Source: a virus
Lineage: Duplodnaviria > Caudoviricetes
Virus record (IMG/VR): IMGVR_UViG_3300030102_005019
Span: 1-57,469 of that record
Strand: one strand, 5' to 3'
Length of the DNA stretch: 57,469 nucleotides
Shown here: in pieces, positions 24,334-56,658 of the stretch
Position numbering within the stretch: the first letter of the stretch is position 1
Layout: every line of letters starts with the position of its first letter
Notes under the pieces: model-generated
Databases searched by the model: none
What the model was told of the DNA's origin: nothing
What the model saw: only the letters and a program-made list of their open reading frames with translations
Made by a program: the position numbers and the translations under genes

Positions 24334-25293
24334 ATGGGGCTATTTGATCAGCGAATACCATACAAACCGTTTGAATATCCAGAATATTACACCGAAGGTT
24401 GGTTAAAACAAGCTCAGGCGTTTTGGTTACACACTGAAATACCTATGAGTGGAGATGTAAAAGACTGGAAAGAAAAACTAACACCTGAAGAAAAAAACTT
24501 GGTAGGTAATATATTATTAGGTTTTGCGCAAACAGAATGTGCTGTTTCTGATTATTGGACACAAAAGGTTGTTGGTTGGTTTCCTAAACACGAGATACAA
24601 CAAATGGCTATGATGTTTGGTTCACAAGAAACAATACATGCTGTGGCTTATAGTTATTTAAATGAAACGTTAGGTTTAGAAAATTTTGAAGCTTTTTTAC
24701 AAGATGAAGCTACAATGGAAAGATTTGATAATTTAGTAGCATATGAAGGAAATGATAAAAAAGAAATTGCAAAAAGCTTGGCGGTCTTTTCTGCTTTTGC
24801 AGAAGGCGTTTCTTTATACTCCGCGTTTGCAGTTTTGTATAGCTTTCAAATGCGAAACTTATTAAAGGGTATAGGACAGCAAATGAAATGGTCTGTTAGA
24901 GACGAATCATTACACAGCAAAATGGGTTGTCATTTATTTAGGCATATGTGCAAAGAAGATGATACTTTATTAGATGATTGTAAACAAACTATTTTAGACG
25001 CAGCTAATTCAATGCACGACGCTGAAATGAAATATATTGATAAAATGTTTGAAATGGGTGATATTGAAAATCTTAAAGCAAACGATCTAAAACAATTTAT
25101 AAAAAAAAGATTAAATGAAAAACTTATGGAACTTGGCTATGAAGGAGTATTCGAGTATGACGAGGCTTCAGCAGATAATCTTAATTGGTTTTACCATCTT
25201 ACCGGCGGGCACACTCATACTGATTTTTTCGCTATACGCCCGACAGACTACAGTAAAGCAAATGAAGGAGAAGATTTTGAAAATATTTGGTAA
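24334..25293 (+). CDS. nrdB: Ribonucleotide reductase class Ia beta subunit
   Basis: ETIHAVAYS, EGVSLYSAF and RDESLH diiron motifs; C-terminal DFFAIRPTDY. Confidence 0.93.
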   Translation: MGLFDQRIPYKPFEYPEYYTEGWLKQAQAFWLHTEIPMSGDVKDWKEKLTPEEKNLVGNILLGFAQTECAVSDYWTQKVVGWFPKHEIQQMAMMFGSQETIHAVAYSYLNETLGLENFEAFLQDEATMERFDNLVAYEGNDKKEIAKSLAVFSAFAEGVSLYSAFAVLYSFQMRNLLKGIGQQMKWSVRDESLHSKMGCHLFRHMCKEDDTLLDDCKQTILDAANSMHDAEMKYIDKMFEMGDIENLKANDLKQFIKKRLNEKLMELGYEGVFEYDEASADNLNWFYHLTGGHTHTDFFAIRPTDYSKANEGEDFENIW

Positions 25294-25302
25294 ATAAAAA
25301 CT

Positions 25303-27024
25303 ATGTGGAATAAAGACTGGAAAAAAGGAGAAGACTACCCTAGCTGGGGTGAAACTGATGTTTATAAAAAAACAATTGGTGGTGGTTACCTGCTTAATGG
25401 TGAAACACCTAAAGACGCGTATATGCGCGTGTGTACGAATGTGGCTAAACGTTTAGAACGACCAGAAATGGCTGAAACATTTTTTAAATATGTTTGGAAA
25501 GGTTGGCTATGTTTAGCTTCACCTGTATTGTCAAATACTGGTACAGATCGCGGTTTACCTATATCCTGTTTTGGTATAGATGTAGGAGACAGTGTTTATG
25601 AAATAGGTATAAAAAACCTAGAAATGATGTTACTCGCAAAGCACGGCGGCGGAGTTGGCATCGGTATAAATATGATTAGGCCGGCCGGAGCAAAAATAAA
25701 AGGAAATGGAACATCTGATGGAACTGTGCCGTTTTGTAAAATTTACGACAGCACAATACTCGCAACGAATCAAGGATCTGTCCGAAGAGGAGCTGCAAGC
25801 GTTAACATTAATATTGACCACCCCGATTTTGAAGAGTGGTTGGAAATACGCGAACCTAAAGGAGACGTTAATCGTCAATCGCTCAACCTACACCAGTGCG
25901 CTGTGGTCGGCGATAAGTTCATGCGAAAGCTTGATGCAGGAGATAAAGACGCAAGAAGACTATGGGGAAAGCTATTACAAAAGCGAAAAGCAACTGGAGA
26001 GCCTTATATCTTATTTAAGGGAAATACAAACAAGGGTAATCCAGCAGCTTACAGAAAACACGGTTTAAAAGTGCACATGACAAACATATGCTCTGAGATA
26101 ACATTACACACTGATGAATCTCATAGTTTTGTTTGCTGCCTTTCATCATTAAATTTAGCCAAATATGATGAATGGAAAAACACTAATCTAGTATATGATA
26201 GTATATGGTTTTTAGATGGAGTGTTAGAAGAGTTTATACAAAAATCAAAAGGTAAAGTTGGCTTTCATAATTCTGTTAGATCTGCTGAAAAAGGTAGGGC
26301 TTTAGGATTAGGAGTTCTTGGTTGGCATACATATCTACAAGAACAAGGTTTACCATTTGAAGGTTTATTATCACAATATGAAACGAGAAGAATATTTAGT
26401 CAAATTAAGATTGAAAGCGAGCGAGCCTCTATGGCATTGGCTGAGGCGTTCGGAGAACCCCTTTGGTGTCGTGGCTCTGCTATGCGTAACACTCATTTAC
26501 GCGCTATTGCTCCTACTGTCAGCAATAGCAAACTCAGTGGAAACGTTTCACCCGGCATTGAGCCGTGGGCTGCAAACGTATTTACTGAACAAAGCGCAAA
26601 GGGTACGTTTATACGGAAGAATCCTACGCTTCAAAAGGTATTAAAGAAAAATAAAATAGACACACAAAAAGTTTGGAACAAGATACTAAAAGATGGTGGA
26701 TCTGTTCAGGGTGTAAAAGAATTAGAAAAAGTTACTGTAGGTAAATTTGATACACCAGCTAAAGAAGTATTTAAAACGTTCAAAGAAATAAATCAACTAG
26801 AGTTAGTTAATCAGGCTGGTATAAGACAACAATATATAGATCAGTCTGTTTCTTTGAACTTAGCTTTTCCGTCCGTAGCTACGCCAAAATGGATTAATAA
26901 AGTCCACATGGAAGCTTGGAAAAAAGGTATTAAGACTTTGTATTATATGCGTACTGAGTCAGTACTTAGGGGAGATATTGCTGAACAAGCAATGGATGAA
27001 AACTGTTTAGCGTGTGACGGGTAA
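25303..27024 (+). CDS. nrdA: Ribonucleotide reductase class Ia alpha subunit (no ATP cone)
   Basis: ASPVLSN, ISCF, GGGVG, RRGA, TNICSEI, APTVS, DQSVS, KTLYY and C-terminal CLACDG. Confidence 0.93.
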   Translation: MWNKDWKKGEDYPSWGETDVYKKTIGGGYLLNGETPKDAYMRVCTNVAKRLERPEMAETFFKYVWKGWLCLASPVLSNTGTDRGLPISCFGIDVGDSVYEIGIKNLEMMLLAKHGGGVGIGINMIRPAGAKIKGNGTSDGTVPFCKIYDSTILATNQGSVRRGAASVNINIDHPDFEEWLEIREPKGDVNRQSLNLHQCAVVGDKFMRKLDAGDKDARRLWGKLLQKRKATGEPYILFKGNTNKGNPAAYRKHGLKVHMTNICSEITLHTDESHSFVCCLSSLNLAKYDEWKNTNLVYDSIWFLDGVLEEFIQKSKGKVGFHNSVRSAEKGRALGLGVLGWHTYLQEQGLPFEGLLSQYETRRIFSQIKIESERASMALAEAFGEPLWCRGSAMRNTHLRAIAPTVSNSKLSGNVSPGIEPWAANVFTEQSAKGTFIRKNPTLQKVLKKNKIDTQKVWNKILKDGGSVQGVKELEKVTVGKFDTPAKEVFKTFKEINQLELVNQAGIRQQYIDQSVSLNLAFPSVATPKWINKVHMEAWKKGIKTLYYMRTESVLRGDIAEQAMDENCLACDG

Positions 27025-27027
27025 TAA

Positions 27028-27100
27028 ATAGAGTGTGGCATGGGTTTTCGTTACTTGGTAGAGCGCACGAGGCGTTCGGGTAATTTTTGTCACACTTTGT
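27028..27100 (+). terminator. Structured element at the convergent early/late junction
   Basis: GAGTGTGGCA/TGTCACACTT outer stem with TTACTTGG/TCGGGTAA and GAGCGC/GCGTTC inner stems. Confidence 0.5.
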
Positions 27101-27499
27101 TTATTTTCTTGGTTCTTTAATAGTTGCTGAATTAGAGGATCTATCTGAGCTTGGAACAGATTTGGGATTAGGCGTTTGACCATAGCTGTTTTTACTACTA
27201 CCAGCACTACTACTACTATTATTACTACCTCTATAAGAAGATCCGCTGTAACTATAATCATAACTCCTTACATGATTATGTGGATATGGATGATAGTAGG
27301 GGTACCAACTACGACTGTATCCATAATTTATAATCCTGTAATTAATAGGCCTTACAACATCAATAGGTAATTTTAAAGTATCACCTTCTTGTGTTACAGC
27401 TAATACGTGTGTTATTTGTATTTTAGGTTTTGGTTGTTGTACTACGCAACTAGTGACAAGTACAGCTACCGCAAAAAGGACAATTTTCCATATTTTCAT
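27101..27499 (-). CDS. Lipoprotein (o-spanin candidate)
   Basis: Signal peptide with lipobox LVTSC; Ser/Tyr/Pro low-complexity tail. Confidence 0.55.
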   Translation of the reverse strand: MKIWKIVLFAVAVLVTSCVVQQPKPKIQITHVLAVTQEGDTLKLPIDVVRPINYRIINYGYSRSWYPYYHPYPHNHVRSYDYSYSGSSYRGSNNSSSSAGSSKNSYGQTPNPKSVPSSDRSSNSATIKEPRK

Positions 27500-27756
27500 T
27501 TTTTATTTTTTTCTACTATAGATTTTATAGTATCAAGTAAACCTTTTTGAAAAGCCGCCATAGGAGCATCTGCTGTTTTGAAAAACACAGGTAGTTTACC
27601 ATAAGATTTTTGTGACATAGTGTCAATTTGTGCTTGTGTAAATTTTATTCTAGGAACATCACCTGGCCCTTTAAATCTTTTATTTACAATACTGTCACCT
27701 CTAAAAGGCCCTATAGTATCATTTTCTCTAGAACCCTGTTTCATTTTATAATTCAT
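27496..27756 (-). CDS. Hypothetical protein
   Basis: ATGA overlaps on both sides. Confidence 0.55.
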   Translation of the reverse strand: MNYKMKQGSRENDTIGPFRGDSIVNKRFKGPGDVPRIKFTQAQIDTMSQKSYGKLPVFFKTADAPMAAFQKGLLDTIKSIVEKNKK

Positions 27757-28217
27757 ATAACTTTGTATTTTGTTTTATTATTTTCGTCTTTATATGCTAA
27801 CAAACATCTATTTCTATTAGCTTCTTCGTTTACATAACTTACATGTACCCAGTCAGGGTTATCAGAGTTTCCAAACTCCCATATCATTTGGTCGAACGAT
27901 AAGTTATTTTTTATATATTCAAACATTTGAGCGTTTGTCATATATCCATAATTATCGTCAATATCCATTGCTCTTCCTTCACAATGTTGTGATTTACTAC
28001 TTCCGCCAATTGCTTTATTAAGTTCGGGTCCGCGATAAAACGAATTAATTTTTATAGGACCGTTTACGTGCTTTCTAAGAGGTTCAAATATTTTTTCTGC
28101 TAATAATTCCATGTTAGCTAAATGATTCTTTGTAGGATCATTATTTAAACCTAACCGCAAAGCAGTTATGCTGTACACACCTTCCTTGTATGTAACATGT
28201 TCACTTATATTTTTCAT
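27753..28217 (-). CDS. Endolysin, peptidase M15 family
   Basis: SFYR..LNKAIGGS..SQHCEGRAMD..WVHVSY Zn-peptidase motifs. Confidence 0.85.
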   Translation of the reverse strand: MKNISEHVTYKEGVYSITALRLGLNNDPTKNHLANMELLAEKIFEPLRKHVNGPIKINSFYRGPELNKAIGGSSKSQHCEGRAMDIDDNYGYMTNAQMFEYIKNNLSFDQMIWEFGNSDNPDWVHVSYVNEEANRNRCLLAYKDENNKTKYKVI

Positions 28218-28220
28218 TTA

Positions 28221-28547
28221 TTATTTGTTTTCAAATAATACTTGATTAATTCTATTTTGAATTACTTCTTTTTCTAGAATTAATTTAAAATTTAACCCAG
28301 CTGCCCATTGGCCTAGGGGTCTACCGTTTTTGTCTAATAACACAACGGTTGGAACTGATCTAATGCTTTGTTTTAAACTTGCTTTTTGATCTTCTAATCT
28401 TGCCATAATTACTTTAGCATGACGAATACCTCTTAAGTCGTAATCATTTGATTCATTCCATTTTGCATTAACATGTAATAATGTTAATTCTTGTGAGCTT
28501 GCTGTAAAAGCAAACATCAATAATATAATTGTAATTAAATTTCTCAT
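28221..28547 (-). CDS. Secreted thioredoxin-fold-like protein without CxxC
   Basis: Signal peptide ending ASS-Q; NAKW and IRSVPTVVLLDKNG (cis-Pro region). Confidence 0.55.
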   Translation of the reverse strand: MRNLITIILLMFAFTASSQELTLLHVNAKWNESNDYDLRGIRHAKVIMARLEDQKASLKQSIRSVPTVVLLDKNGRPLGQWAAGLNFKLILEKEVIQNRINQVLFENK

Positions 28548-28849
28548 CTTGTGATTTCGTAAATTTTATCTGAATTCTTTTTTATTTCTTCTCGGTTTTC
28601 TTTTATATCTTCTTTTAGCAGTTCTGTAGACGCCTCTATCTGTATAATGGTCGAGCGAATCAACTCGTCTTTAAGTTTGAATTCCATTTGCTTTACAAAC
28701 TCCTCAGGATTATTCTGATTTTGTAATTCTTTTATATCTGCTTGTAAAGTAAACCACATACCCGCTAAAGCTATTGCTCCTCCAACGATCATTCCAATCG
28801 TTTTTAGGTCTAATTGTACTTGAGTATCTTCTCCAATTTGTGTTGCCAT
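28544..28849 (-). CDS. TM + coiled-coil protein (paralog of 30383-30685)
   Basis: MATQIGEDTQVQLDLKTIGMIVGGAIALAGMWF...KDELIR. Confidence 0.65.
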   Translation of the reverse strand: MATQIGEDTQVQLDLKTIGMIVGGAIALAGMWFTLQADIKELQNQNNPEEFVKQMEFKLKDELIRSTIIQIEASTELLKEDIKENREEIKKNSDKIYEITR

Positions 28850-28853
28850 ATTT

Positions 28854-30044
28854 TTATCTAAATGTAAAGTTTACGCCTACAGAAGAATTATAAATTTCTG
28901 AATCCCAGAATTTAGTATATTCTCCTTCGGCAAATATTCCTATTGCTTTGCTTAATTTCCAGCCAAATATTATTCCAGCTTGGTAATCGTCCCATTGTTC
29001 TAGTTCTGAATCTTTTTTCAAACCACCTTTACCCCAATTGTTACGATTTAAATAACTTACGTTTTCATCACCAACAACGTATTTGTGATAAGGTAATATA
29101 TAGTTACCATAAGCGTGAAGCCAAAAGTTAGATCTATAGTGGTAAAAATCAAAACCAACAACAGGTGCAACCTCACCAAAAGCATCTAATAAATCCCACT
29201 GTTCTCTGTTATATAAGTTCATAAGATCGCCAAATATAGAGTTTCTAAAATCTCTATCACTCCAAGCTACAACCTTGCCATTACTATCTTTCCATATCCA
29301 GTCATATCTTTCTTCACCCGTGTTTATATCTGTGTATTTTGTAAAATTATCAGTATAACCATATTCATATCCTAAACTATACCATGGATTTTTTGGGTAT
29401 TCATTACCAAAGTCATCAACTTCAGTTTCATTTAACCATATTTCTATAGGGTTATATCCATAAGGTGTTTGATGTGTACGGTATATTGCTCCTGCAGATA
29501 AGCTGAACTTTTAACCTATTGGTAATCTAGCCCTAACTTCTGCTGATTGATATTTAAAACCAACATTACCCTGTTCTCTTTGTTCTAATTTTACAATGTG
29601 ATATTTACCCACATGTCTAATAAAAAATCTTGAATTAAAAAATTCTTCACCCCTATCACGTTCTTTTTCATAATGAAATAAATATTCTAAACCTTTTACA
29701 GATGATGTTGGCGCTGATAATGATTTGTTGTTTTCAGTACCATCATAATAGCTTTTACCTTTCACCTCATACCCAAATCTCGCTAGTTTTCTAAAACCAA
29801 CACCAATACGGTAATCCATTGGATAATATTCTGTTACATCAATAACTCTAGGTATACTATATAGATCTCCATCAGCCGGTCTTTCAACAAAGTAATCTTT
29901 ATATGTTTGTTCGTACGCGTTAGAAGCATCACCTGCTACATAAAACGTTCCGTATTTTAAAAAGTCTTTATATAACTCTTTTAAAAACTGTGCATTTGAA
30001 TTAAATGAAATTAATAAACAAAGTACTAATAATAGTTTTTTCAT
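28854..30044 (-). pseudogene. Outer-membrane beta-barrel-like protein interrupted by a single in-frame TAA (29511-29513)
   Basis: ORFs 29511-30044 and 28854-29222 share a frame and the 96 codons between them are open; signal peptide; C-terminal SSVGVNFTFR beta-signal-like motif. Confidence 0.7.
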
Positions 30045-30047
30045 ATG

Positions 30048-30383
30048 TTAAAATGTGTTTTCTAAAATTTCGTTAATAGCGTTTTCTATTTTATCTATTG
30101 TATTTTCAGGTAGTTTTAATGTAACACCTGATTCTATTTTTAATATTTCTTCACCATTATGAAACAATATAATAGTTGGTATGTATATTATCTCTTCTTT
30201 TGTAAAATGATCACTGTGTTTGCTTAAGTAAAATAAATGTGTATTATGATCATCAAACTTTTTTAATGATATTTCATTGTCTTTTACAAACTCAGCGCTA
30301 AATTGTACTACTGATATACCGTCTTTATATTGTGAATAACCTGTTAGTGTAAATAATAATAATAGTATTTTTAAATATTTCAT
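30048..30383 (-). CDS. Secreted thioredoxin-fold-like protein without CxxC
   Basis: Signal peptide ending GYS-Q; VVQFSAEF and IIYIPTIILFHNGEE. Confidence 0.55.
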   Translation of the reverse strand: MKYLKILLLLFTLTGYSQYKDGISVVQFSAEFVKDNEISLKKFDDHNTHLFYLSKHSDHFTKEEIIYIPTIILFHNGEEILKIESGVTLKLPENTIDKIENAINEILENTF

Positions 30384-30685
30384 TAGTTACGAGAAATTTC
30401 ATAAAGTCTTTCATCTAACTTTTCTAATGTTATTTTCATAGACTCTACATCAGATTTTATTGCCTCTACATCCTTTTGAGTTAATTCAATTGTTTTACGT
30501 ATCATTTCGTCTTTATATTTGAATTCAACCTCACTTACAGGTGCTTCAGGTAGTTTTTTAGCTTCTTCTATATCAGCAGCCATAACAAAATACATGCTAG
30601 CTAAAGATATCGCACCGGCAACAATTATTCCTATTGTTTTAAGATCTAATTTTAATTGAGTGTTTTCGGATATTTCTGTTGCCAT
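30383..30685 (-). CDS. TM + coiled-coil protein (paralog of 28544-28849)
   Basis: MATEISENTQLKLDLKTIGIIVAGAISLASMYF...KDEMIR. Confidence 0.65.
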   Translation of the reverse strand: MATEISENTQLKLDLKTIGIIVAGAISLASMYFVMAADIEEAKKLPEAPVSEVEFKYKDEMIRKTIELTQKDVEAIKSDVESMKITLEKLDERLYEISRN

Positions 30686-30730: not shown

Positions 30731-33700
30731 TTAATTATTATATTTTCTTTTGTTATATGGGCTTTTGTATCCCTTATTAAGATTATAAGTAGGTCTTTTA
30801 GGTTTACCTTTTGATTTTTTCTTTTTTAAAGCAGCAACAGAATCATCTGGTTCAAAATCTATATTCCACCTATTCCAACCACCTAATAAAGCTATTTTTT
30901 GCCAAATTTCAGTTTCACTATCAAGAGCGTCTTTAATGTTTCTAACTTTATTTAATAACCTATCAGCAGGAATATTAGCAAAAGAACCAGCCGCTGTTAC
31001 AACGTCTAGCGCTGGGTTTTCAACAGATAATCCCATTTCTTTATAATATTTCCAATTATATTCATGACCTCTTGCTGCTCTAATAAATTGATTTGATTTT
31101 ATACCTATTGCAGGAGAAACGTTTAGTGCTTCTATTAATAATCCTGATCTATCAAATCTACCCTCACCTGATCTCATTTTTTGATCTTCTTGTATAAACT
31201 TTAAAGCAACGTTTTTACCTGTAGCTAAAATTGCCCCATATATACCTATACCTCTTAAAAATGTATCTACCATCCTATTTCCAACTGTCGTCAATTGTTT
31301 TTGTTCTCTTTTCTCTTCCTCTTCATTTTTGTCATCATCTTTAGGGAATAGTTGTGAAAATAAAGCGTTTTGTAAAGCATTAAACATTACGTTTTGTAAA
31401 ACAACATAATACATTATTATTGATAGATTTTTTCTTTTACTTCCTCTACCAGCTCTAAAATCTTGTAATGCTTTTACTGTTTTTCTAGTATACTGCATTG
31501 GTGTGTTTTGAAAAGCTAAAAATATTCTACCAACAACATCAGTTTGTTGTTTTGACAATCTATCAGCTCTGGCAGACTGTTGTGTTTCTTCTGTTATTTC
31601 TTGAAAATCACTAAAAGCAAGTTCTTCAGCTACTTTAGGGTCTTTTCCTTTTTTAATATAACTGTTAACTCTGTTTCTAAAAAAAGTAGCACCACCAGCT
31701 GATATTGCAAAAGCATCACCAGCTCTTGTAAATGCAAAACCTTTTTGTAGCATAGTACCTAATAAACTTTGGAAACCTGTTTTATTTCTAATAGCTTCAG
31801 CTATTTCAGCTTCTTGTACATCGGTCCTAAGACCACCTCTTCGTTCTTTTAAGTAATCTGAGTTATATAAATATAAAAAGTCTTTTGCCCATTGTTTTGT
31901 ATCTGCAAAAGCAGCAGAAGCTTTAAATATATTATTATCTGAAAAGTTTATATAGTTAAAAGTAGATATTGTTTGTAGTAAAGCTGATCTTGTGTTAAAA
32001 AACATAGTAACAGCAACAGATCCTCTAATCCAGTTTAAAAAATTATTTATGGTTTTATTAGTACCAACAGGCCTTGATCTTCCAGTTTCCATCCTGTTTA
32101 GTATATCTTTTAATGCGCTTACATAATCGTTACCAAATGTAGCTCTAATTTTATTCATATTGTTTTTAGAAAATATTTGTTCTTTATTTTCTATCCACTC
32201 TTTTAAATATAATTTTCTCGATGTTTCATCTATAGATCTTAAAAAATCTTGTTGTACACTTCCTGCTAACCAACTTTTATCATCAGGGTTTATCCACGTA
32301 TCACCTTGTGGATGTTGCATTATACTACTTAATTGACTTGCATACTTTAAAAGCGTTGGATCACCTAAAACAACACCTTGTAGCTTAGCAACTGTTTGTT
32401 CGTTTTCTATACCAGGTATTTTATAACCTGATTTTGTATATAAATAAACTCGTAATGCTTGATCTTTATTATACCCTAGAACACCGGAGTCTTCGTTTAA
32501 TGTTTTTTGAAAACCTTTGTTGTCTTTTAAAAACTGTTTATACTTAGCACTTTTAGCTTGTCTTGACGTATTTAACATCATAATAGCTTTACCAAAAGGC
32601 CTTACAAGTTTTTTGTCGAAAAAGTCTAATTGTCTTTCGCCTAATGAACCTTTACCTAGCATTGAATATAATAAACCTAAAAAGTCATTAGCGCTAGGTG
32701 GTATAATGTTTCTTATTTTCTTTCTTGTAACTGCAAGGCGAGAAGAAGTAGCTGTATCAATAATATCTCCTTTTTCATATCTAGTATCTTTCAAAGATAA
32801 TATTTCAGCCATCTTTTCTTCTAAAGGTGTTTTCTCTATATCAAAATCATCTTTTACTTTACTAAATTGTTCGTCAGGATTTGTATTTTTCTTTACATTA
32901 TCAATTGATTCTTGTTGTGATATGTTTGGTGCTTGTTGTAGCATGTTTGTTGGTACAAAGCCAGCTTTATAGGCATCACTATTTAAAATTGTTTCTTTAC
33001 CAGATAAAATATCAAATATTAATTGTTTACCTAGGTTGCTATTAGTTTTGTAGCTTTCTAAAGAATATCTTGTTTTTTCTTGTTTTAATATTGTTAGATC
33101 TAATGAAGCTAAACTATTTATACCACCTATAGACGATGTATCGAAATCAGTTGTTTTAATTACAAATAACAATCTGTTTTTTCTTTCTTGTTTAGTATCA
33201 CCAGCTTTTATAAATGCCATTTTATATAAATTAATAAGGTTAAACAAGGCATTGTTTTGTTCTCTTATTTTAGCATCTTTCTGTTTTACTATTGCAGCAA
33301 GTTTTTTATCGTAACTTATCTTATCGTTATTTAATACTTTTCTTATATCATTTAATGTTGTAATATTACCTTCGCCTTTTACCCAATCATTTAATCTATT
33401 TATAAAATTAACTTGGTTTTGATCTAAATTACCTTCAGCTTTTAATTTATTCTTTGAAATAAAATTATCAACTTGTTGTTCAGATAAAGTTATACTTTCA
33501 ATACTTTTTCTATCTCTTAGTATTTTACCGTTTTTATCAACAAGTACTTTGTCATCTGATATATATAGATCATGTGTAACTTGATATAAAGAGTTTATAC
33601 CTTGAAAACCTGTTATTGCTTTAGCTAATCCTTTGTTGTCTTTAAATACATCTGGTAAACTATTTAAAAACTTTTCTTGATATTTTTGTGTTTTAACAAG

Positions 33701-36700
33701 ATTATCATAATCCCACTGTTGTGAGTTGTTTTTATATTTATAAGACATAAAAGCTTTATAATCTTCTCTATTAAGAGTTATGTCATATATTTTATTTGCA
33801 GCGTCTAAAAGTTCTTCATTTTCAAACATGGTTTTTGTAAACCTTTTTAGTTCTGATTTTTCAAAAATCATTTTTTGTAACTCAGGTAATACAAAATCAA
33901 AATCACCTTCTTGACTAAACTGATATTGTGATTTACCTGCAGAAATATTATTTATTGCATTAGGATTTATACCTAACTCTTGCATACGTATTCTTACTTC
34001 TGTATTTATAGCTGCTCTTATAGCAAAGTTTAATATACCTTTTAATCTTTGTGCTTCTGGACTTTGACCATCAAAAAGTTTACCTCTTGCGTCAACTGAT
34101 ATAGGACTGCCATCTGGATTCATACCTGCAACCCTAAGATATTTATTTCTAAACGATTCACTAACAACCGTTTCACCTTGTTCATTTACCTCAAAAGCAT
34201 TATCAGGTAAAACGTATTGTGGATTACCTTGTGCATCTTCAACTCTTCCTGTGCCTAATCTATATGCAACATACAGGTCTAATCCAAACTTTTTATCATT
34301 AATTATTTTAGTAGGTATTCTAACAGATTTACCTTGTACACCAAGATCTGCGTCTTGTACAACACTAGTATATTTAGGTAAAAGTTTTATAAATGAATCT
34401 ACTATAGGGTATATAAACTCTTGTATTTTTATAGCTTCACCTTTACCTAAGTTATCTTTAAAATTTGTTATTTTATTTGGCTTTATACCTATTTTTTGTG
34501 CAAAAGAATTTACAACCTCTTCTAATAATGGTACTTTAGAATATGTTAATTGACTAACGTTCATGTTGTCAATATTATCTACAACTGCTTTTTTAGTCTC
34601 TTTTTGAACATTTAAAAGCTTTGATGGTATTATTGAATCAGGATCAATCTCTTCTACACCTCTTTTAGTATCAAACTCAGAAAAATCTTCTTCAGTTCTA
34701 GCTTCATTAGCAACAAATCCAACTTCACCAGCTTCTATATCTAACCTATTAGCGGCGGTTTTTTTGTATTGTTTTGTTATTTTACCTTTATTATAGTTTA
34801 GGTTAGCGTTAATCCAACCCATTAAACTATCATTTTGTTCAGGATTAAAACGCATTAATACCCCAGTCATTTCTAATTTAACATCTTCAACAAATGTTTC
34901 TATAGGTTTACCATGTACGTTTTTGCCTATAATACCACGTTTTATTAAATGATCTAGTTTATTACCTTGTATTATAGCGTTATAAGCTTTACTAATACCA
35001 CCTTCATCCCACTCTTTTTTACTTACAACATATGCACCGCTACCGTCTTTTTCACCAACCAAATCATCTATTACTTTATTAGCCTGTTCGTAGTCAAAAC
35101 TACCATCTTCTAATTCGAACTCATCTCTTACTTCTGAAAACTGTTTTCTTTTCTTTTTAAGCTCTTTTGCAAGTTTTGTTTTATCAATAGCATCCAAAAC
35201 TTTTTGTGAAACCTCGTTGTTTTGTGCTGACTTACTATATTCAGTTAAAAAGTTAAATACTTGATCAGAATTAGCAAAACCTATTTCTAAATCGTATTGT
35301 TTAAAGAAACTTTTAATGAAATCATAAAGTTTTTCTAAAACTGTTTTGTCAAGAGATAATTCTTGTTTAGCCAAAGCATCGGTAAAAACGTTAAAATATT
35401 CAGTATCATATTTTCCACTTTCAATACCATAACCCCTGCTCTCCATAATAGCATCCATTTCTGATACTTGCCTAGATGTTAATCTTTTTTTAACACCCTC
35501 AACCATTTTACCTTGTTGTTTTTTATTACCTATTTGTGAGTTTATTATAGGGTGTAGCACTTCATGTGCACCTATATTTATTTGAAAAGTATCTTTAGCG
35601 GCTTGTTTATTAAAATATATTTGACCGTTAACGTATACGCCACCTATATTTTTAACCTCTTGTTCTGTTTTACCAAGTATATCAGCAAACTCTTTGTTTG
35701 TTTCTATATCTTGTGACTTTATACCTAAAGCTTCGCCCATTTTAGCACCAAAGCTTGTACTTTTATCTATTATCATTTCAACACCTTGATCTTCTGATAA
35801 AATACCTTTAATTCTTAAAACATTAGAATTAAATTGATCTTTAGCTGCTTTTAGATAAACGTTATATTCGTCTTTTGTAATTTCTTTGTTTTGAAGTTTT
35901 TGATCAAGTTCTTGTAGTTTTATTACTTGACTTTGTGTTTCTTGATTTATGTCAGATATTCTTTTTTGATTTTCTTCTGACAAGTTATTTATTTTAGCGT
36001 TTGATCTACCAACAAGTATTTCAATATTTGCTTTTGCAGTGTCTATATTGTCTTGCGCCTTTTGTCTAACTGAATTATCTTCAGACTCATTTAACACCCT
36101 GCTATTATAAACTAAAGCATTAAAGTTTCTTTGTATTTCATTTGACTCTTTAGTAGATCGTACAGCCGGTCCAGCTGAAATTAAATTTTTTGATGCTCTT
36201 GCACCTCCACCTCCAACAAAACCTTGTAGTAAATTTTCATAAGCATCTTGTTCAGTCAACATTTTTACTAATGTTTCTTTTACCACTTCACCAGATGATT
36301 TACCTTCTGCTATTAATTTGTTTGCTTCAGTAAGCCCATATTGTTTCCACTCTGTTAAAGCTTCAACTGTTCCAACCTCTGCAATATCTAATATTTTTTT
36401 TGTTAATTTTCCAGCGCCTTTACTAGCTAACATACCAGAACCACCTTTTAGTATTTTTCCAATACCTATGTTTTCAAGTAATGATTGACTAAATCCTATT
36501 ATAGCAGGTGTTTTTGTTTCAGCGTCACCAGATTTTATTAAATCAGATAAAGACATGTTTTTTTGCTTGGCTAACTCTTCATTATAATTCAAATAATTTT
36601 CTGCCATAAAATCAAAAAAGAAACCACTACCAAAAGTTGTTACTCCATATGCTATAGAACCAATAGCGTTTATAACAGCGTCGATACCCGCTGCAACAAC

Positions 36701-37222
36701 GCCAGGAATATCACCTTCTTTAACCGATTGTATGATTTTTTTTGTAGGTAATTTTTGTTGTTGTTCTATTCTAAAAGCTGGTATTGCTTCTAACAGATCT
36801 TGTTCTGTCATACCCTCTAATAACCATGAGTCTTTACCATATTTTTTTTCTAGATTTAATACAGTTTGCCTACCTAATATAGTTTGGGCTAATGCAGAAC
36901 TAGCTAAATCTAAAGCAGGAGATTCACCAGTATAAAACTCACCTATGTCTCCTAATTGTTCTACAAAATTTTTAAAACTATTTTTTATGGATTCACCAAA
37001 GCTAATTCTTGAGTTTTGTGAAACCGAAGAACCATCTACCAAATTTAAGTCCATATTGGGTGCTTTTGACAGCAGAGCAGTCACACCCTGGTCTGCTCCT
37101 TGCAACTTTACTTGTTCTTGATTATCTTGTAAAATTGCGTCTGGGTGTTTTAATAGAAACTCTTGTTTTCTATTTGGGGCAACTTCGAAAAGTTTACCAT
37201 TAACTAAATAAAATTCATTCAT
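30731..37222 (-). CDS. Large internal virion / ejection protein (about 2160 aa)
   Basis: Likely start ATG 37222; helical; HEVLH zincin-like motif; located at the end of the structural module. Confidence 0.7.
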   Translation of the reverse strand: MNEFYLVNGKLFEVAPNRKQEFLLKHPDAILQDNQEQVKLQGADQGVTALLSKAPNMDLNLVDGSSVSQNSRISFGESIKNSFKNFVEQLGDIGEFYTGESPALDLASSALAQTILGRQTVLNLEKKYGKDSWLLEGMTEQDLLEAIPAFRIEQQQKLPTKKIIQSVKEGDIPGVVAAGIDAVINAIGSIAYGVTTFGSGFFFDFMAENYLNYNEELAKQKNMSLSDLIKSGDAETKTPAIIGFSQSLLENIGIGKILKGGSGMLASKGAGKLTKKILDIAEVGTVEALTEWKQYGLTEANKLIAEGKSSGEVVKETLVKMLTEQDAYENLLQGFVGGGGARASKNLISAGPAVRSTKESNEIQRNFNALVYNSRVLNESEDNSVRQKAQDNIDTAKANIEILVGRSNAKINNLSEENQKRISDINQETQSQVIKLQELDQKLQNKEITKDEYNVYLKAAKDQFNSNVLRIKGILSEDQGVEMIIDKSTSFGAKMGEALGIKSQDIETNKEFADILGKTEQEVKNIGGVYVNGQIYFNKQAAKDTFQINIGAHEVLHPIINSQIGNKKQQGKMVEGVKKRLTSRQVSEMDAIMESRGYGIESGKYDTEYFNVFTDALAKQELSLDKTVLEKLYDFIKSFFKQYDLEIGFANSDQVFNFLTEYSKSAQNNEVSQKVLDAIDKTKLAKELKKKRKQFSEVRDEFELEDGSFDYEQANKVIDDLVGEKDGSGAYVVSKKEWDEGGISKAYNAIIQGNKLDHLIKRGIIGKNVHGKPIETFVEDVKLEMTGVLMRFNPEQNDSLMGWINANLNYNKGKITKQYKKTAANRLDIEAGEVGFVANEARTEEDFSEFDTKRGVEEIDPDSIIPSKLLNVQKETKKAVVDNIDNMNVSQLTYSKVPLLEEVVNSFAQKIGIKPNKITNFKDNLGKGEAIKIQEFIYPIVDSFIKLLPKYTSVVQDADLGVQGKSVRIPTKIINDKKFGLDLYVAYRLGTGRVEDAQGNPQYVLPDNAFEVNEQGETVVSESFRNKYLRVAGMNPDGSPISVDARGKLFDGQSPEAQRLKGILNFAIRAAINTEVRIRMQELGINPNAINNISAGKSQYQFSQEGDFDFVLPELQKMIFEKSELKRFTKTMFENEELLDAANKIYDITLNREDYKAFMSYKYKNNSQQWDYDNLVKTQKYQEKFLNSLPDVFKDNKGLAKAITGFQGINSLYQVTHDLYISDDKVLVDKNGKILRDRKSIESITLSEQQVDNFISKNKLKAEGNLDQNQVNFINRLNDWVKGEGNITTLNDIRKVLNNDKISYDKKLAAIVKQKDAKIREQNNALFNLINLYKMAFIKAGDTKQERKNRLLFVIKTTDFDTSSIGGINSLASLDLTILKQEKTRYSLESYKTNSNLGKQLIFDILSGKETILNSDAYKAGFVPTNMLQQAPNISQQESIDNVKKNTNPDEQFSKVKDDFDIEKTPLEEKMAEILSLKDTRYEKGDIIDTATSSRLAVTRKKIRNIIPPSANDFLGLLYSMLGKGSLGERQLDFFDKKLVRPFGKAIMMLNTSRQAKSAKYKQFLKDNKGFQKTLNEDSGVLGYNKDQALRVYLYTKSGYKIPGIENEQTVAKLQGVVLGDPTLLKYASQLSSIMQHPQGDTWINPDDKSWLAGSVQQDFLRSIDETSRKLYLKEWIENKEQIFSKNNMNKIRATFGNDYVSALKDILNRMETGRSRPVGTNKTINNFLNWIRGSVAVTMFFNTRSALLQTISTFNYINFSDNNIFKASAAFADTKQWAKDFLYLYNSDYLKERRGGLRTDVQEAEIAEAIRNKTGFQSLLGTMLQKGFAFTRAGDAFAISAGGATFFRNRVNSYIKKGKDPKVAEELAFSDFQEITEETQQSARADRLSKQQTDVVGRIFLAFQNTPMQYTRKTVKALQDFRAGRGSKRKNLSIIMYYVVLQNVMFNALQNALFSQLFPKDDDKNEEEEKREQKQLTTVGNRMVDTFLRGIGIYGAILATGKNVALKFIQEDQKMRSGEGRFDRSGLLIEALNVSPAIGIKSNQFIRAARGHEYNWKYYKEMGLSVENPALDVVTAAGSFANIPADRLLNKVRNIKDALDSETEIWQKIALLGGWNRWNIDFEPDDSVAALKKKKSKGKPKRPTYNLNKGYKSPYNKRKYNN

Positions 37223-37223
37223 A

Positions 37224-39038
37224 TTATTGTGCAAAAGATTTATCAACGTCTTCTTGACCTCCAAAAATAGAGATTCTACGTTTTAATTTATCTATTAGTT
37301 CTTTTAATTCAGCTCTACTAATACCATCAAGACCTCTACTTGATCTACTAAATACCTCGCCAGTTTCTTCATTTATGTAATAACGTGATTTATTTGTCTT
37401 ATATAAGTCTTCATATTCTTTAACCTGCATACCCATATCAGTTAACATTTGTTGTACTTCTATAGGATCTAACTCACCTTTATCAATTAAGTCTTGATAA
37501 ACCTCGTTATCGTCCTTAAGTTGTCTTATTAATAATTGTAATGCTCTTTTTGATATTCTTTCACCATCAACTGTTACCATACCAGAAGATGTTTTACTAT
37601 ATAACTCTTCTAATTCAGCTATTTTACTAGTATTAGCTTGAAGTGTTTCGTTTAACGCCTCAGGAGATAATGCTTGCTCAGTTTGTTCAAGTTGTTCTTG
37701 TTTAAGTTTTTCTTGTCTTAGTTTTTCTTTTTCAACCTGTTCTTGAACTCTTAATCTATAATCGTCTCTTAAAAGTCCTTTTGCTTTTTGTAGTTTTCTA
37801 GGATCTGCACCATATCTCATTTCCAACATATAATTAGCTAATTTAAATTGACCAGTTAGTGTCCTTACATCAAATGTTGCTGGTACTATTTCGTTATCTA
37901 TAGTTAATAAACCTGGTATATTAACAACACCTAGCCCAGTGTTTGGATCTACATCTGTCATTGTTACTGGATCATCACCTGCTGTTAAATTAAAATCTAA
38001 CATACTCGGTAGAGTTACCGGATCACTTATGTCAGTGTAAATTTTATTAATTTCACCTATAAGATTTTGTTGTTCAACTAAATCATTTCTTTGCTCAGCT
38101 GTTAAATTATTTAAAGGATTTTGCTGCTCCTCTAAACGCATATTTATTCTATTTACAGTTCTCGAACCGTTTTGTAATTGAAACTTAAGATATTCAATTA
38201 TAGCACCATCTTGATCTTGTATAGCCTTTTCTTTTTCTTCTTGTGTCATGGTATCAGGAAAATCATTATATCTTATAGATATATCTGTTGCTGCTCTAGC
38301 GTAATCGTTAAATAATACCCTTTTTGTTTGATCGTCCATTAAACCAAATAATCTAGTTGCTTCTGCATCTATATCACCCGTTATTTTGTCTTGAATTTTT
38401 AAAGGATCTTCTGCTTGTTGATATCTATAATCTATAGCGTTTATACTGTTTTTTAACATACCATCAAGACCTGTTAATATATCAGTTTTGTTTTTTAATA
38501 AATCTACTTTATCTGGTATTTTATCAGCCATTAGTATTTTAGTAGCACCATTAGGCATTTTAAATGATAAAGCTGGCCCACCGCTATACATAATAACTTC
38601 AAAACCGTTTATTTTATTTGTTAAAAAATCTTTAAACGTACCATCATCTAAACCAAATAAATCTATTTCTGTAGGATCTAATTTTACAGCTGTGCCTAAT
38701 TTCGTTAGCGGATTTAAAATACCCATACCTATTTCATCATATATCTCTTGTCTTTGTTGTTGATTAGCATTAGCAAACATACCGTTTTCAACATATCTTT
38801 CGTTTATAGTTTTTTTGGTAATATCAGCTACATCTTTACCAAAAGTTTTAGCTATAGTAGGATAGTCCATTTCTTTATTGAACTGGGCTAAAGCATAGTC
38901 TAACTGTTGTTTTTCTTTTTCTTCTTTTTCAGATTGTTTTTCATAATAGGCTCTGTGTTTTTCTATAGTGCTTAAAAAGCTTTTTAGAAAAGCATTAGGA
39001 TCACCTACAAATAAATTTCCTGGATTTCTATAACTCAT
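37224..39038 (-). CDS. Putative internal virion / ejection protein
   Basis: 604 aa, coiled-coil rich; MSYRNP start; position in the module. Confidence 0.55.
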   Translation of the reverse strand: MSYRNPGNLFVGDPNAFLKSFLSTIEKHRAYYEKQSEKEEKEKQQLDYALAQFNKEMDYPTIAKTFGKDVADITKKTINERYVENGMFANANQQQRQEIYDEIGMGILNPLTKLGTAVKLDPTEIDLFGLDDGTFKDFLTNKINGFEVIMYSGGPALSFKMPNGATKILMADKIPDKVDLLKNKTDILTGLDGMLKNSINAIDYRYQQAEDPLKIQDKITGDIDAEATRLFGLMDDQTKRVLFNDYARAATDISIRYNDFPDTMTQEEKEKAIQDQDGAIIEYLKFQLQNGSRTVNRINMRLEEQQNPLNNLTAEQRNDLVEQQNLIGEINKIYTDISDPVTLPSMLDFNLTAGDDPVTMTDVDPNTGLGVVNIPGLLTIDNEIVPATFDVRTLTGQFKLANYMLEMRYGADPRKLQKAKGLLRDDYRLRVQEQVEKEKLRQEKLKQEQLEQTEQALSPEALNETLQANTSKIAELEELYSKTSSGMVTVDGERISKRALQLLIRQLKDDNEVYQDLIDKGELDPIEVQQMLTDMGMQVKEYEDLYKTNKSRYYINEETGEVFSRSSRGLDGISRAELKELIDKLKRRISIFGGQEDVDKSFAQ

Positions 39039-55151: not shown

Positions 55152-55423
55152 TACTTTGATCTTCTTTCAGCAAAACCTTTAAATGTGTTTTCTTTTTGTT
55201 CTACTGGTTTATTATCTAATAAAGCTTTTTCAGCCTCAATACGGTTTAATATTTCAAAAGCATCGAATATAGCTAGCTTTTTTGTTGCTGCTGCATTTTT
55301 TAATCTATCAGCTGAAACATCATCTTCTGTATCAACTATTTCTTCTTTAGCAACTTTTATAAGTTCATTAACCGCTCTGTAACCAGCTTGGATTATATTC
55401 TTTTTCGTTTCCTTTATATTCAT
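55151..55423 (-). CDS. Putative terminase small subunit or conserved protein
   Basis: 90 aa helical protein upstream of TerL; DRLKNAAATKKLAIFDAFEIL. Confidence 0.5.
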   Translation of the reverse strand: MNIKETKKNIIQAGYRAVNELIKVAKEEIVDTEDDVSADRLKNAAATKKLAIFDAFEILNRIEAEKALLDNKPVEQKENTFKGFAERRSK

Positions 55424-55961
55424 ATTTAATACAAATTGATTTTATTGGTACTCTATAAAGTCTTTCGTTGTTTATTATAAATTCATATTCACTATCTGGT
55501 GTAAAACCTATAAGATCTTGTTTTTTAATATGTTTATTGTCAACATATTTTATAATACCCGTGTTTTCTTTTTCTTTATTTGTAGAAAACTTATCATCAT
55601 TTGATATCGGTTTAACAAAACAATATTCTTTTATAGGCTTCCATTCCGTTCTATGTCTGTAGGCAAATATTTGATCTAAATAAACAAAATACATACCATC
55701 TACAAAACTACTGCTACTGTCTTTTTCATTACCTCTAATATCATTAAACCTTCTAAAAACATTATGATGTACTATTATTTCATCACCTTGTTTTATAGGT
55801 GATTTAACGTTTATTGGGCAATGTATGACTTTAGCGTTTCTACTAACAAATTTATGATCTTGTATTTCAGTGTTTAATATAAAATCTTTATCACCAATTT
55901 TTTTAGTATTATTATATCTTTTTTCTATAGGTTTTATTATAAAATAATATAAGCTTTGCAT
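55368..55961 (-). CDS. GroES-like co-chaperonin domain protein
   Basis: FIIKP..IKQGDEIIVHHN and YCFVKP..GIIKY tandem GroES-like segments. Confidence 0.55.
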   Translation of the reverse strand: MQSLYYFIIKPIEKRYNNTKKIGDKDFILNTEIQDHKFVSRNAKVIHCPINVKSPIKQGDEIIVHHNVFRRFNDIRGNEKDSSSSFVDGMYFVYLDQIFAYRHRTEWKPIKEYCFVKPISNDDKFSTNKEKENTGIIKYVDNKHIKKQDLIGFTPDSEYEFIINNERLYRVPIKSICIKYEYKGNEKEYNPSWLQSG

Positions 55962-56196: not shown

Positions 56197-56658
56197 TTAT
56201 TTTTTTAAAACAGATGTTACTTTTTCTCCACTACGTCCACCAAAATATGCTAATACAACTGCCATCATTACTTTTTCAAACGTGTCGTTCCATGTTTCAC
56301 CTATATGAAATGGTATTGAATCAACACTATCAAGTAATCCAGCTAATGAAAATATAACAATACACCACACTAAAACTAGCGGGCGTACATTTTTAGAAAG
56401 CCACGAGTCTGATTTTGAATCTGCTTCCCATCTTGAAGTTATAGCTTCCATCTCTTTATTTTGTTGCTCGTATATAAGTTGTTGCAATTTTATTTTATCA
56501 TCAGCACTTACATCTGATTTACCTATTGCAGCTATAGCTTCACCTGGTGAAGTTACACCTTTAAGTACATTACCTAATGTTGGGTTAACTATAGAAGCTG
56601 CTCCAAACAAAAGTTTACCAACTGTACTTTCTGCAAATTTTTTCTTTGGCTTTGACAT
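56197..56658 (-). CDS. Holin (3TM / GTA-type)
   Basis: RWEAD..SDSWLSKNVRP, TM segments, AYFGGRS.EK. Confidence 0.75.
   Translation of the reverse strand: MSKPKKKFAESTVGKLLFGAASIVNPTLGNVLKGVTSPGEAIAAIGKSDVSADDKIKLQQLIYEQQNKEMEAITSRWEADSKSDSWLSKNVRPLVLVWCIVIFSLAGLLDSVDSIPFHIGETWNDTFEKVMMAVVLAYFGGRSGEKVTSVLKK

Follow-up and report, generated by a model that had tools for sequence, protein, structure and literature searches.

A predicted envelope module of marine flavobacterial phages that combines a membrane anchor, a thioredoxin fold without a redox site and an outer-membrane barrel beside the endolysin gene

Lysis of a Gram-negative host requires the outer membrane to be removed, which in other phages is the job of spanins or a disruptin. 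Spanins and one disruptin are the only agents named for this step in the excerpts consulted of 10.1101/515445, which put the share of phages that have neither at approximately 15%. For flavobacterial phage isolates, the consulted portion of PMC8776804 reports only endolysins, holins and unimolecular spanins. Here we describe a group of genes from a 57,469 bp sequence that constitutes the entire IMG/VR virus record IMGVR_UViG_3300030102_005019 (classed as linear; CheckV completeness 89%; GC ~31%), and which we refer to as the window. Directly upstream of the endolysin gene in the window lies a module built from three protein families: A, a small protein with one membrane helix; B, a secreted protein with a thioredoxin fold; and a protein predicted to form an outer-membrane β-barrel. 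As judged from its relatives, the module belongs to marine phages infecting Flavobacteriia-type Bacteroidota. None of the three families has a characterised member; the module is widespread and found only in phages, and its function is read from its context. The interpretation that we favour, to which we assign a probability of roughly 45%, is that it belongs to the lysis cassette as an accessory set of exported proteins that would perform the outer-membrane step in a spanin-like manner using unrelated parts.

The two-component spanins, exemplified by lambda Rz/Rz1 and T4 PseT.3/PseT.2 in the consulted text of PMC6139136, resemble A and B in being two small coupled genes beside the endolysin and holin. 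The likeness extends to the proteins themselves: the first subunit has an N-terminal membrane helix and a helical, coiled-coil-like domain, the second is exported, and the sizes of A and B (100 + 111 amino acids, aa) are close to those of the T4 spanin (117 + 83 aa). The features of A that may correspond to an inner-membrane spanin, one hydrophobic helix followed by a helical acidic C-terminal domain, are read from its sequence, with a tentative topology taken from a small charge bias and from the way in which the C-terminal domain tracks the type of B. Position in or beside a lysis cassette is shared by 95/111 A genes. However, A and B have no sequence relation to spanins, and B is a folded thioredoxin with a signal-peptidase-I site rather than a lipoprotein, the lipobox of an outer-membrane spanin being present in 0/164 distinct B proteins. 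A also differs in lacking the periplasmic cysteine (present in 1/172 proteins), a third, barrel component is usual, and the pair is sometimes present twice. As the lipoprotein feature and the usual periplasmic cysteines are missing, we do not class the module as a spanin, even if its mode of action may be spanin-like.

The disruptin gp28 of phage phiKT provides the other comparison, as it serves a non-spanin outer-membrane step in a phage without recognisable spanins. In the consulted part of its description (10.1101/515445) gp28 consists of one cationic, amphipathic peptide of 56 aa, whereas the module comprises acidic or folded exported proteins from two or three families. Among cellular proteins, the 12-stranded outer-membrane barrels (EstA, NalP, KdgM/NanC, Tsx, LpxR and OMPLA) are similar to the phage barrel in fold only; unlike them, the phage protein has a 100-aa insert, has no sequence match in Pfam or the PDB, and occurs only on phage-like contigs. 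B shares its fold and cis-proline with the thioredoxin family (PF00085) and differs in its loss of CxxC (164/164) and in being secreted. No description of an A/B/barrel module was found in the full-text literature searched, a scope that leaves most subscription journals and supplementary gene tables outside.

All of the open reading frames (ORFs) named in a preliminary description of the window were present on the minus strand, and their tight coupling was equally evident. The first gene, A1 (30383..30685), encodes a 100-aa protein in which a conserved N-terminal tail (MATEISENTQLKLDLK) precedes a single membrane helix rich in Gly, Ala and Ser and a C-terminal domain of ~60 aa that is acidic and helical. 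It overlaps by one base (TAATG) with B1 (30048..30383), which encodes a 111-aa secreted thioredoxin-fold protein with no CxxC and a signal peptide ending ...LTGYS/Q, where the slash marks the cleavage site. The barrel gene follows at 28854 to 30044, and after it come A2 (28544..28849), a 101-aa paralog of A1, and B2 (28221..28547), a 108-aa thioredoxin-like paralog of B1 that also has no CxxC and whose signal peptide ends ...TASS/Q. A2 and B2 share an ATGA overlap, as do the M15 endolysin gene and the 86-aa ORF downstream of it, and that ORF and the lipoprotein gene that follows; the other spacers are 3-4 nucleotides (nt). The paralogy is well past chance both for A1 and A2 (48% identity, E 2e-31) and for B1 and B2 (26% identity, E 6e-8).

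For comparison we gathered 225 related loci, called their ORFs and built hidden Markov models for each family. Of 167 distinct A genes followed by 500 nt or more of sequence, 166 had B as the next gene, the exception having a 69-aa ORF in between, and an adjacent A-B pair accompanied 88/88 distinct full-length barrels with enough flank. The three families are therefore linked, though the five-gene apparatus that the preliminary description had proposed is not obligatory. A single A-B pair was present in 72/88 barrel loci: the pair lay only downstream of the barrel in 45 cases, only upstream in 27 and on both sides, as in the window, in 16. Furthermore, of 93 A genes in A-seeded loci that had 2.5 kb or more of flank on either side, 78 had a barrel within 3 kb and 15 had none; of these 15 barrel-less A-B loci, 13 had an M15 endolysin close by and 9 a holin. 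A profile search of ten barrel-less records detected a barrel in none of them, including three that are 97-100% complete, one of which has terminal repeats, whereas the same profile detected the barrel in 4/4 control records, one of them only 33% identical. Since every barrel is accompanied by A-B and complete genomes carry A-B with no barrel, the barrel depends on A-B, and A-B does not depend on the barrel.

The same loci bear on the claim that the window carries a duplicated module. Both pairs are indeed paralogous; however, they are not the product of a recent duplication. B1-type pairs lay upstream of the barrel in 58/58 placed pairs, and B2- or B3-type pairs downstream of it in 63/63, while in barrel-less cassettes an A of the A3 type was mostly combined with a B of the B2 type (14 cases). 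These fixed positions, together with the 26% identity between B1 and B2, argue against recent tandem duplication, and the two pairs of the window are instead two old, diverged, position-specific lineages that relatives usually carry singly.

Lysis genes accompany the module in most relatives. Among A genes with at least 3 kb of upstream and 3.5 kb of downstream flank (n=111), 94 had a lysin family (M15, Amidase_2 or another) or the holin family no more than ~4 kb away, and an Amidase_2 found by Pfam in locus L061 raises this count to the 95/111 given above. In the window, the endolysin gene (27753..28217, minus strand) begins 3 nt after the end of B2, and its product matches peptidase M15 (PF08291, 5.9e-14) and phrog_894 'endolysin' (1e-28) and has no signal or anchor sequence. 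Because this M15 endolysin lacks an export signal, one would expect it to depend on a holin and the outer membrane to be dealt with in a step of its own; neither PHROG nor Pfam recognised a canonical spanin pair in the module. The type of lysin downstream of the module varies among relatives (M15, Amidase_2 or another putative lysin; Amidase_2 PF01510 at 3.6e-14 in L046 and 9.4e-19 in L061), and A-B is constant. Such mosaicism, with A-B constant and the lysins exchanged, is typical of lysis cassettes. In relatives a holin of the GTA_holin_3TM type (PF11351, 1.9e-5 and 2.5e-5), homologous to that of the window, usually comes after the lysin, and in many of them the holin homolog is directly next to the endolysin on its downstream side. 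The window holin (56197..56658, minus strand; phrog_3427 'holin', 2.4e-18) lies 26 kb away, at the head of the late operon, in agreement with the earlier remark that it is encoded far from the module; it scored 21.2 bits against Pfam GTA_holin_3TM when queried without its first Met, below the 24.8-bit cut-off. The barrel-less cassettes read A-B-endolysin-holin, and so match classical holin/endolysin/two-spanin cassettes in the number (four) and arrangement of their genes.

Downstream of the endolysin, the previously noted ORF and lipoprotein gene were also found. The 86-aa ORF (27496..27756, minus strand) overlaps both of its neighbours by ATGA, has no Pfam or PHROG match and was present in one related locus only, of those gathered at that stage. 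The 132-aa lipoprotein (27101..27499, minus strand) has the lipobox LVTSC and a Tyr/Ser/Pro-rich tail; its family occurs within ~4 kb of A in 16/111 loci and is thus an optional member of the cassette. It matched an Rz-like spanin PHROG weakly (E 0.062), over the signal peptide only. We considered whether this lipoprotein could be a unimolecular spanin of the T1 gp11 type and rejected this, as it has no C-terminal helix and its tail is hydrophilic, ending ...ATIKEPRK.

The preliminary description of B1 and B2 as proteins with signal peptides, a thioredoxin-like character and no CxxC was borne out by the wider family. A profile of 42 B proteins matched 214 PDB chains at E<1, with a best E of 1.1e-10, and among the 60 matches listed almost all were thioredoxins (E 1.1e-10 to ~1e-4). 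The alignment runs from β1 to β4 and includes the invariant cis-proline position (P69), this structural proline being the sole invariant residue in B; Pfam and PHROG scans of the B proteins gave sub-threshold matches only. CxxC was present in 0/164 distinct B proteins, the site being replaced by sequences such as FVKDN, WNQSN and FNEAN, and 74/164 had any cysteine in the mature part. The loss of CxxC, along with the invariance of the structural proline alone, points to B being a soluble periplasmic thioredoxin fold without a redox site that would act as a binding module rather than an enzyme. Instead of a lipobox cysteine, B proteins have signal-peptidase-I type sites followed by Gln, and a crude signal-peptide-then-Gln pattern fits 132/164 of them. 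Gln at +1 is the 'Q-rule' for substrates of Bacteroidetes signal peptidase I, as given by the consulted parts of PMC5837995 and PMC10653852, and the same rule is noted for Porphyromonas phage proteins in those of PMC10367356. The Gln at +1 of both B and the barrel thus fits a Bacteroidota host, and argues for export rather than packing into the virion. Separately, 112/164 B proteins end in Phe (...SKF, ...SQF, ...NTF), which resembles the C-terminal signal of outer-membrane proteins.

The A proteins share an architecture consisting of a conserved 16-aa N-terminal tail, an invariant Lys, the membrane helix, a Pro-containing linker and a helical acidic domain (~17 Asp/Glu versus 12 Lys/Arg as counted in the window) with the conserved motifs E-x-x-x-KDE-x-x-R and ERLYE. 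Mean identity within the family is 0.63 for the N-terminal tail, 0.53 for the membrane helix, 42% of which is Gly/Ala/Ser/Thr, and 0.49 for the C-terminal domain. No relatives of known function were found in Pfam, PHROG or PDB sequences (PDB best E 0.27), and an ESM Atlas look-up returned unnamed viral clusters only, with DUF2730 and other leads scoring 0.81-0.89, within the chance range. We take A to be, most likely, a protein of the inner membrane whose N-terminus lies inside and whose helical domain of ~60 aa is periplasmic. The flank charges (N-terminal flank, Lys+Arg 2.15 and Asp+Glu 2.76; C-terminal flank, Lys+Arg 1.65 and Asp+Glu 3.43) slightly favour this orientation. Across 165 natural A-B pairs, the C-terminal domain of A tracked the type of B (Spearman 0.43) more closely than did the N-terminal tail (0.24) or the membrane helix (0.11), and its identity was 0.80 when the B proteins were at least 60% identical versus 0.44 when they were less than 35% identical. 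This fits a periplasmic A-B contact, and gives weak support to the idea that the C-terminal domain of A faces B.

Two variants of A were also observed. Some A proteins (L025:1658-1975, L048:5700-6017, L058:6410-6730 and L096:5001-5339) carry a calcium-loop-like insert of ~12 aa, D-x-D-G-D-G-K-x-D, between the N-terminal tail and the membrane helix. A second type, A', has the N-terminal tail and membrane helix of A and a different C-terminal domain with the motif WPRGE...LPDDA, and is not followed by B. Ten distinct A' genes were found (L020:7365-7697, L025:1353-1655 and L126:280-609 among them), usually within the same cassette and often in the order A'-A-B.

The product of the barrel gene is 396 aa in length and begins with a signal peptide ending ...SNA/Q, the Gln (Q19) being at least 90% conserved in the alignment. 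An AlphaFold2 (AF2) model built on an intact relative that is 92% identical, using an alignment of 31 sequences, contained 12 long strands (pLDDT 70.7, pTM 0.61). The top Foldseek matches of this model were all outer-membrane barrels, namely NanC, the autotransporter domains of EstA and EspP, COG4313 and FapF (E 4e-6 to 1e-4). Structural comparison with VIA gave Z scores of 13.5 for EstA, 13.1 for KdgM, 12.8 for Tsx and NanC, 12.3 for NalP, 11.1 for LpxR and 9.5 for OMPLA, over alignments of 165-211 residues with root-mean-square deviations of 3.9-6.1 Å and 5-14% identity. The Sec signal peptide and the predicted antiparallel barrel of 12 strands support the assignment of the middle gene as encoding a 12-stranded outer-membrane barrel, in keeping with the preliminary description. 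Invariant charged or polar residues are numerous in the strands. As regards a C-terminal aromatic β-signal, the sequence of the closing strand finishes ...VGVNFTFR; in a set of 137 barrels the final residue is L (63), R (43), K (24) or F (7), and the penultimate residue R (46), F (39), L (27), K (10), I (7), M (6), E (1) or Q (1).

The barrel has no sequence relative in Pfam or the PDB. Searching its profile against PDB sequences yielded no relative (best E 1.6), and Pfam and PHROG scans of the two halves gave sub-threshold matches only and no Pfam family. Against 1.84 billion representatives the profile returned 394 matches at E<=0.001, and the 150 of these that were listed appear to be members of the family or pieces of them, with no bridge to a known family. 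The best-conserved and best-predicted portion of the protein is the insert of ~100 aa between strands 7 and 8 (residues 190-290; 29175..29477, minus strand). Folded alone by AF2 (pLDDT 89.5, pTM 0.73), it is predicted to form a small α/β unit ending in a 25-residue helix. Neither Foldseek (best E 0.11) nor VIA (best Z 3.5) found a convincing solved counterpart, which does not show that the fold is new. From the strand order and the usual topology of such barrels, we infer that this loop faces outward.

In the window the barrel gene is interrupted, a feature overlooked in the preliminary description, which had treated it as a single gene. It consists of two abutting minus-strand frames, one of 177 codons (29514..30044) encoding the signal peptide and strands 1-6, and one of 218 codons plus stop (28854..29510) encoding strands 7-12 and the conserved insert, split by an in-frame TAA (29511..29513) where close relatives have Lys. 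Intact barrels in relatives are one protein of ~390-425 aa. The codon at this position is a sense codon in 128/128 related locus rows, several of which share a contig (AAA 55, AAG 20, CAA 15, AGA 14, AAC 9, AAT 5, TTT 4 and GGT/GGA 6), and the relative L002, which is identical across the C-terminal half, reads AAA. Furthermore, the plus-strand base at 29513 is T (coding AAA) rather than A in all covering contigs from 4/4 marine runs, at depths of 25.3/25.3, 68.2/68.2, 8.5/8.5 and 11.7/11.7. As all relatives and run contigs have a sense codon, the TAA is confined to this record, whether as a rare null allele of natural origin or as an error, two cases that the run contigs, which drop rare variants, cannot separate. 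A recoded or readthrough codon was also considered and rejected: neighbouring genes end in TAA, the other runs read AAA, and relatives carry Lys, Gln, Arg, Asn and other residues at the position.

Among cultured phages, the terminase of the window is closest to those of podophages that infect Flavobacterium (46% identity), Cellulophaga, Tenacibaculum and Maribacter, and the host is therefore very probably a member of the marine Flavobacteriaceae. The module is abundant in viromes from the ocean, and near-identical DNA was present in marine runs from 12 studies dating from 2014 to 2024. Virome searches yielded 2374 barrel homologs at E<=0.001, and at least 458 A-encoding stretches are present in IMG/VR. 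No matches to the region by megablast, or to the barrel halves, A1 and B1 by tblastn, were obtained in 50,697 phage records, from which records very near the window may have been excluded, and no cultured phage with the module was found in the searched phage records. Prophage copies were not found, the only matches among 185,579 species genomes being five contigs of metagenome-assembled genomes (MAGs). These sole 'cellular' barrel records (L142-L146), labelled Maricaulis, Bacteroidetes and Woesearchaeota, are probably phage contigs that were binned into MAGs; in the searches run, the barrel family is confined to phage-like contigs.

Taken together, these data fit the reading of the module as an exported accessory of the lysis cassette. 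A and B would be made in equal amounts from their coupled genes and would form a complex, which would be anchored at the outer membrane by the phage barrel where one is encoded and otherwise by a host protein. After the holin and the M15 endolysin had removed the cell wall, the A-B complex would destabilise or breach the outer membrane. Of the preliminary interpretation, a trans-envelope apparatus for which lysis was one of three roles offered, the export signals, co-conservation and lysis-cassette position are supported, and an obligatory set of five genes is not. A more specific proposal, which we regard as possible and rather doubtful, is that the module represents a third class of phage outer-membrane disruption, specific to Bacteroidota phages, in which A as an inner-membrane coiled-coil protein and the redox-dead periplasmic thioredoxin would dock on a phage or host outer-membrane protein and tear or fuse the envelope after cell-wall cutting. 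Under that proposal, the two A-B lineages of the window would bind two different sites on the same barrel.

Several points weigh against an outer-membrane lysis role. The function and binding proposed for A, B and the barrel come from context. The periplasmic part of A (~60 aa) and B (~92 aa) are short for bridging the periplasm, B has no lipid anchor in any of the 164 proteins, and cysteine occurs after residue 40 in the single A protein noted above; the consulted text of PMC6139136 gives a periplasmic cysteine in ~96% of two-component spanins. The charge bias that underlies the topology of A is small, only slightly favouring an internal N-terminus, and the acidic DxDGDG insert before the helix of some A proteins, which bears on the N-terminal tail side, argues for caution. 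The barrel is dispensable for some phages and broken in the window record. A recognisable lysis gene is absent near ~16/111 A-B loci, and at L054:7313-7717 a secreted-type staphylococcal-nuclease homolog (PF00565, 8.9e-6) replaces the endolysin. Finally, the factor that truly acts on the outer membrane in this clade could be a lipoprotein encoded after the endolysin.

Other functions can be weighed against the same observations. The module could remodel the cell surface or provide superinfection exclusion, with A and B helping to place the barrel and the insert of the barrel masking or altering a receptor, which would stop further phages or keep progeny off debris. Exclusion roles are held by phage outer-membrane proteins and lipoproteins such as lambda Lom and T5 Llp, the best-conserved part of the barrel is what we take to be an outward loop, and some module loci have a nuclease, as L054 does, and a lipoprotein in place of lysis genes. 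However, exclusion genes are usually early or lysogenic, whereas the module lies at the end of the late structural operon and is tightly coupled to the endolysin; moreover, A-B pairs without a barrel directly precede an endolysin and holin, and the prophage searches described above found only the five MAG contigs. We therefore consider surface remodelling unlikely. The glycine- and alanine-rich helix of A, with its high content of Ser and Thr, also recalls releasable signal-anchor domains, which raises the idea that the module controls lysis timing, with A acting as an antiholin, second holin or releasin-like protein through the action of its conserved N-terminal tail and helix on the holin, B as a periplasmic sensor or partner, and the barrel in a role apart. 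The tail and helix are the most conserved parts of A and are common to A', whose C-terminal domain differs. Single-pass accessory proteins are present in the Mu and P1 lysis cassettes in the consulted sections of PMC9239132. Against this, no release factor is required by the cytoplasmic endolysin, A invariably has an exported thioredoxin fold as its coupled partner, whose type is tracked by the C-terminal domain and not by the N-terminal tail, and the barrel never occurs without A-B (88/88); a role in timing thus seems quite unlikely to us.

The structural matches of the barrel to LpxR and OMPLA, and to the KdgM/NanC/Tsx group (Z 12.8-13.1), together with the many invariant charged or polar residues in its strands, would also be compatible with a channel or enzyme, either a lipid A or phospholipid hydrolase like LpxR or OMPLA or a solute pore, for which A and B would be periplasmic escorts or assembly helpers; cysteine-free thioredoxin folds can serve as chaperones. 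This idea is made very unlikely by the presence of A-B in genomes without a barrel and by the lack of sequence relation between the barrel and any Pfam family or PDB chain. In addition, a catalytic motif like that of OMPLA (His/Ser), LpxR (His/Asp) or PagL was not recognised in the barrel, a statement that rests on fold matches in which residues were not superposed. That the module encodes virion structural or assembly proteins might be suggested by its position at the end of the structural block, directly after genes matching 'virion structural protein' PHROGs and a 2177-aa protein. Tailed-phage virions, however, assemble in the cytoplasm, and the Sec signals with Gln at +1 on B and the barrel, together with the outer-membrane fold of the latter, would send these proteins out of it; we regard a virion role as highly improbable, and the products as something other than virion parts.

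The module forms part of a single late operon that runs on the minus strand from ~57.4 kb down to 27.1 kb, in the order holin, terminase (phrog_6681, 3e-166), portal (phrog_6547, 1e-151), several 'virion structural protein' PHROGs, the 2177-aa protein and then the A/B/barrel module. The only family match of the 2177-aa protein (30731-37264), phrog_9593 (8.5e-4), is uninformative, and many relatives preserve its C-terminal 500 aa, at 36-48% identity, upstream of their own copy of the module. Near the holin, a 197-aa protein (55368-55961) matches a PHROG annotated as the co-chaperonin GroES (6.5e-17). Two plus-strand ORFs, 24334-25293 (319 aa) and 25303-27024 (573 aa), which from reading their sequences we take to resemble both subunits of ribonucleotide reductase, converge on the late operon, with 77 nt between their end and that of the operon and a terminator-like hairpin at 27061-27077. 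No terminator-like site was found inside the module, and sigma-70-type promoter-like sites, a consensus that does not fit Bacteroidota, were not enriched (29 versus 23.9 ± 4.8 in shuffles).

What is new here is the two-pair form of the module and its lineage structure, the broken barrel allele, the occurrence of A-B without a barrel in complete genomes, and the tracking of B type by the C-terminal domain of A. In phages of Flavobacteriia, bacteria that are major degraders of algal-bloom carbon, the module occupies the place expected for spanins. If it truly performs the outer-membrane step, it would explain how these phages release their progeny and the contents of the cell, and would constitute a new type of trans-envelope device made from a β-barrel and a dead thioredoxin. 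If it does not act in lysis, it would still be a widespread set of outer-membrane proteins made by phages.

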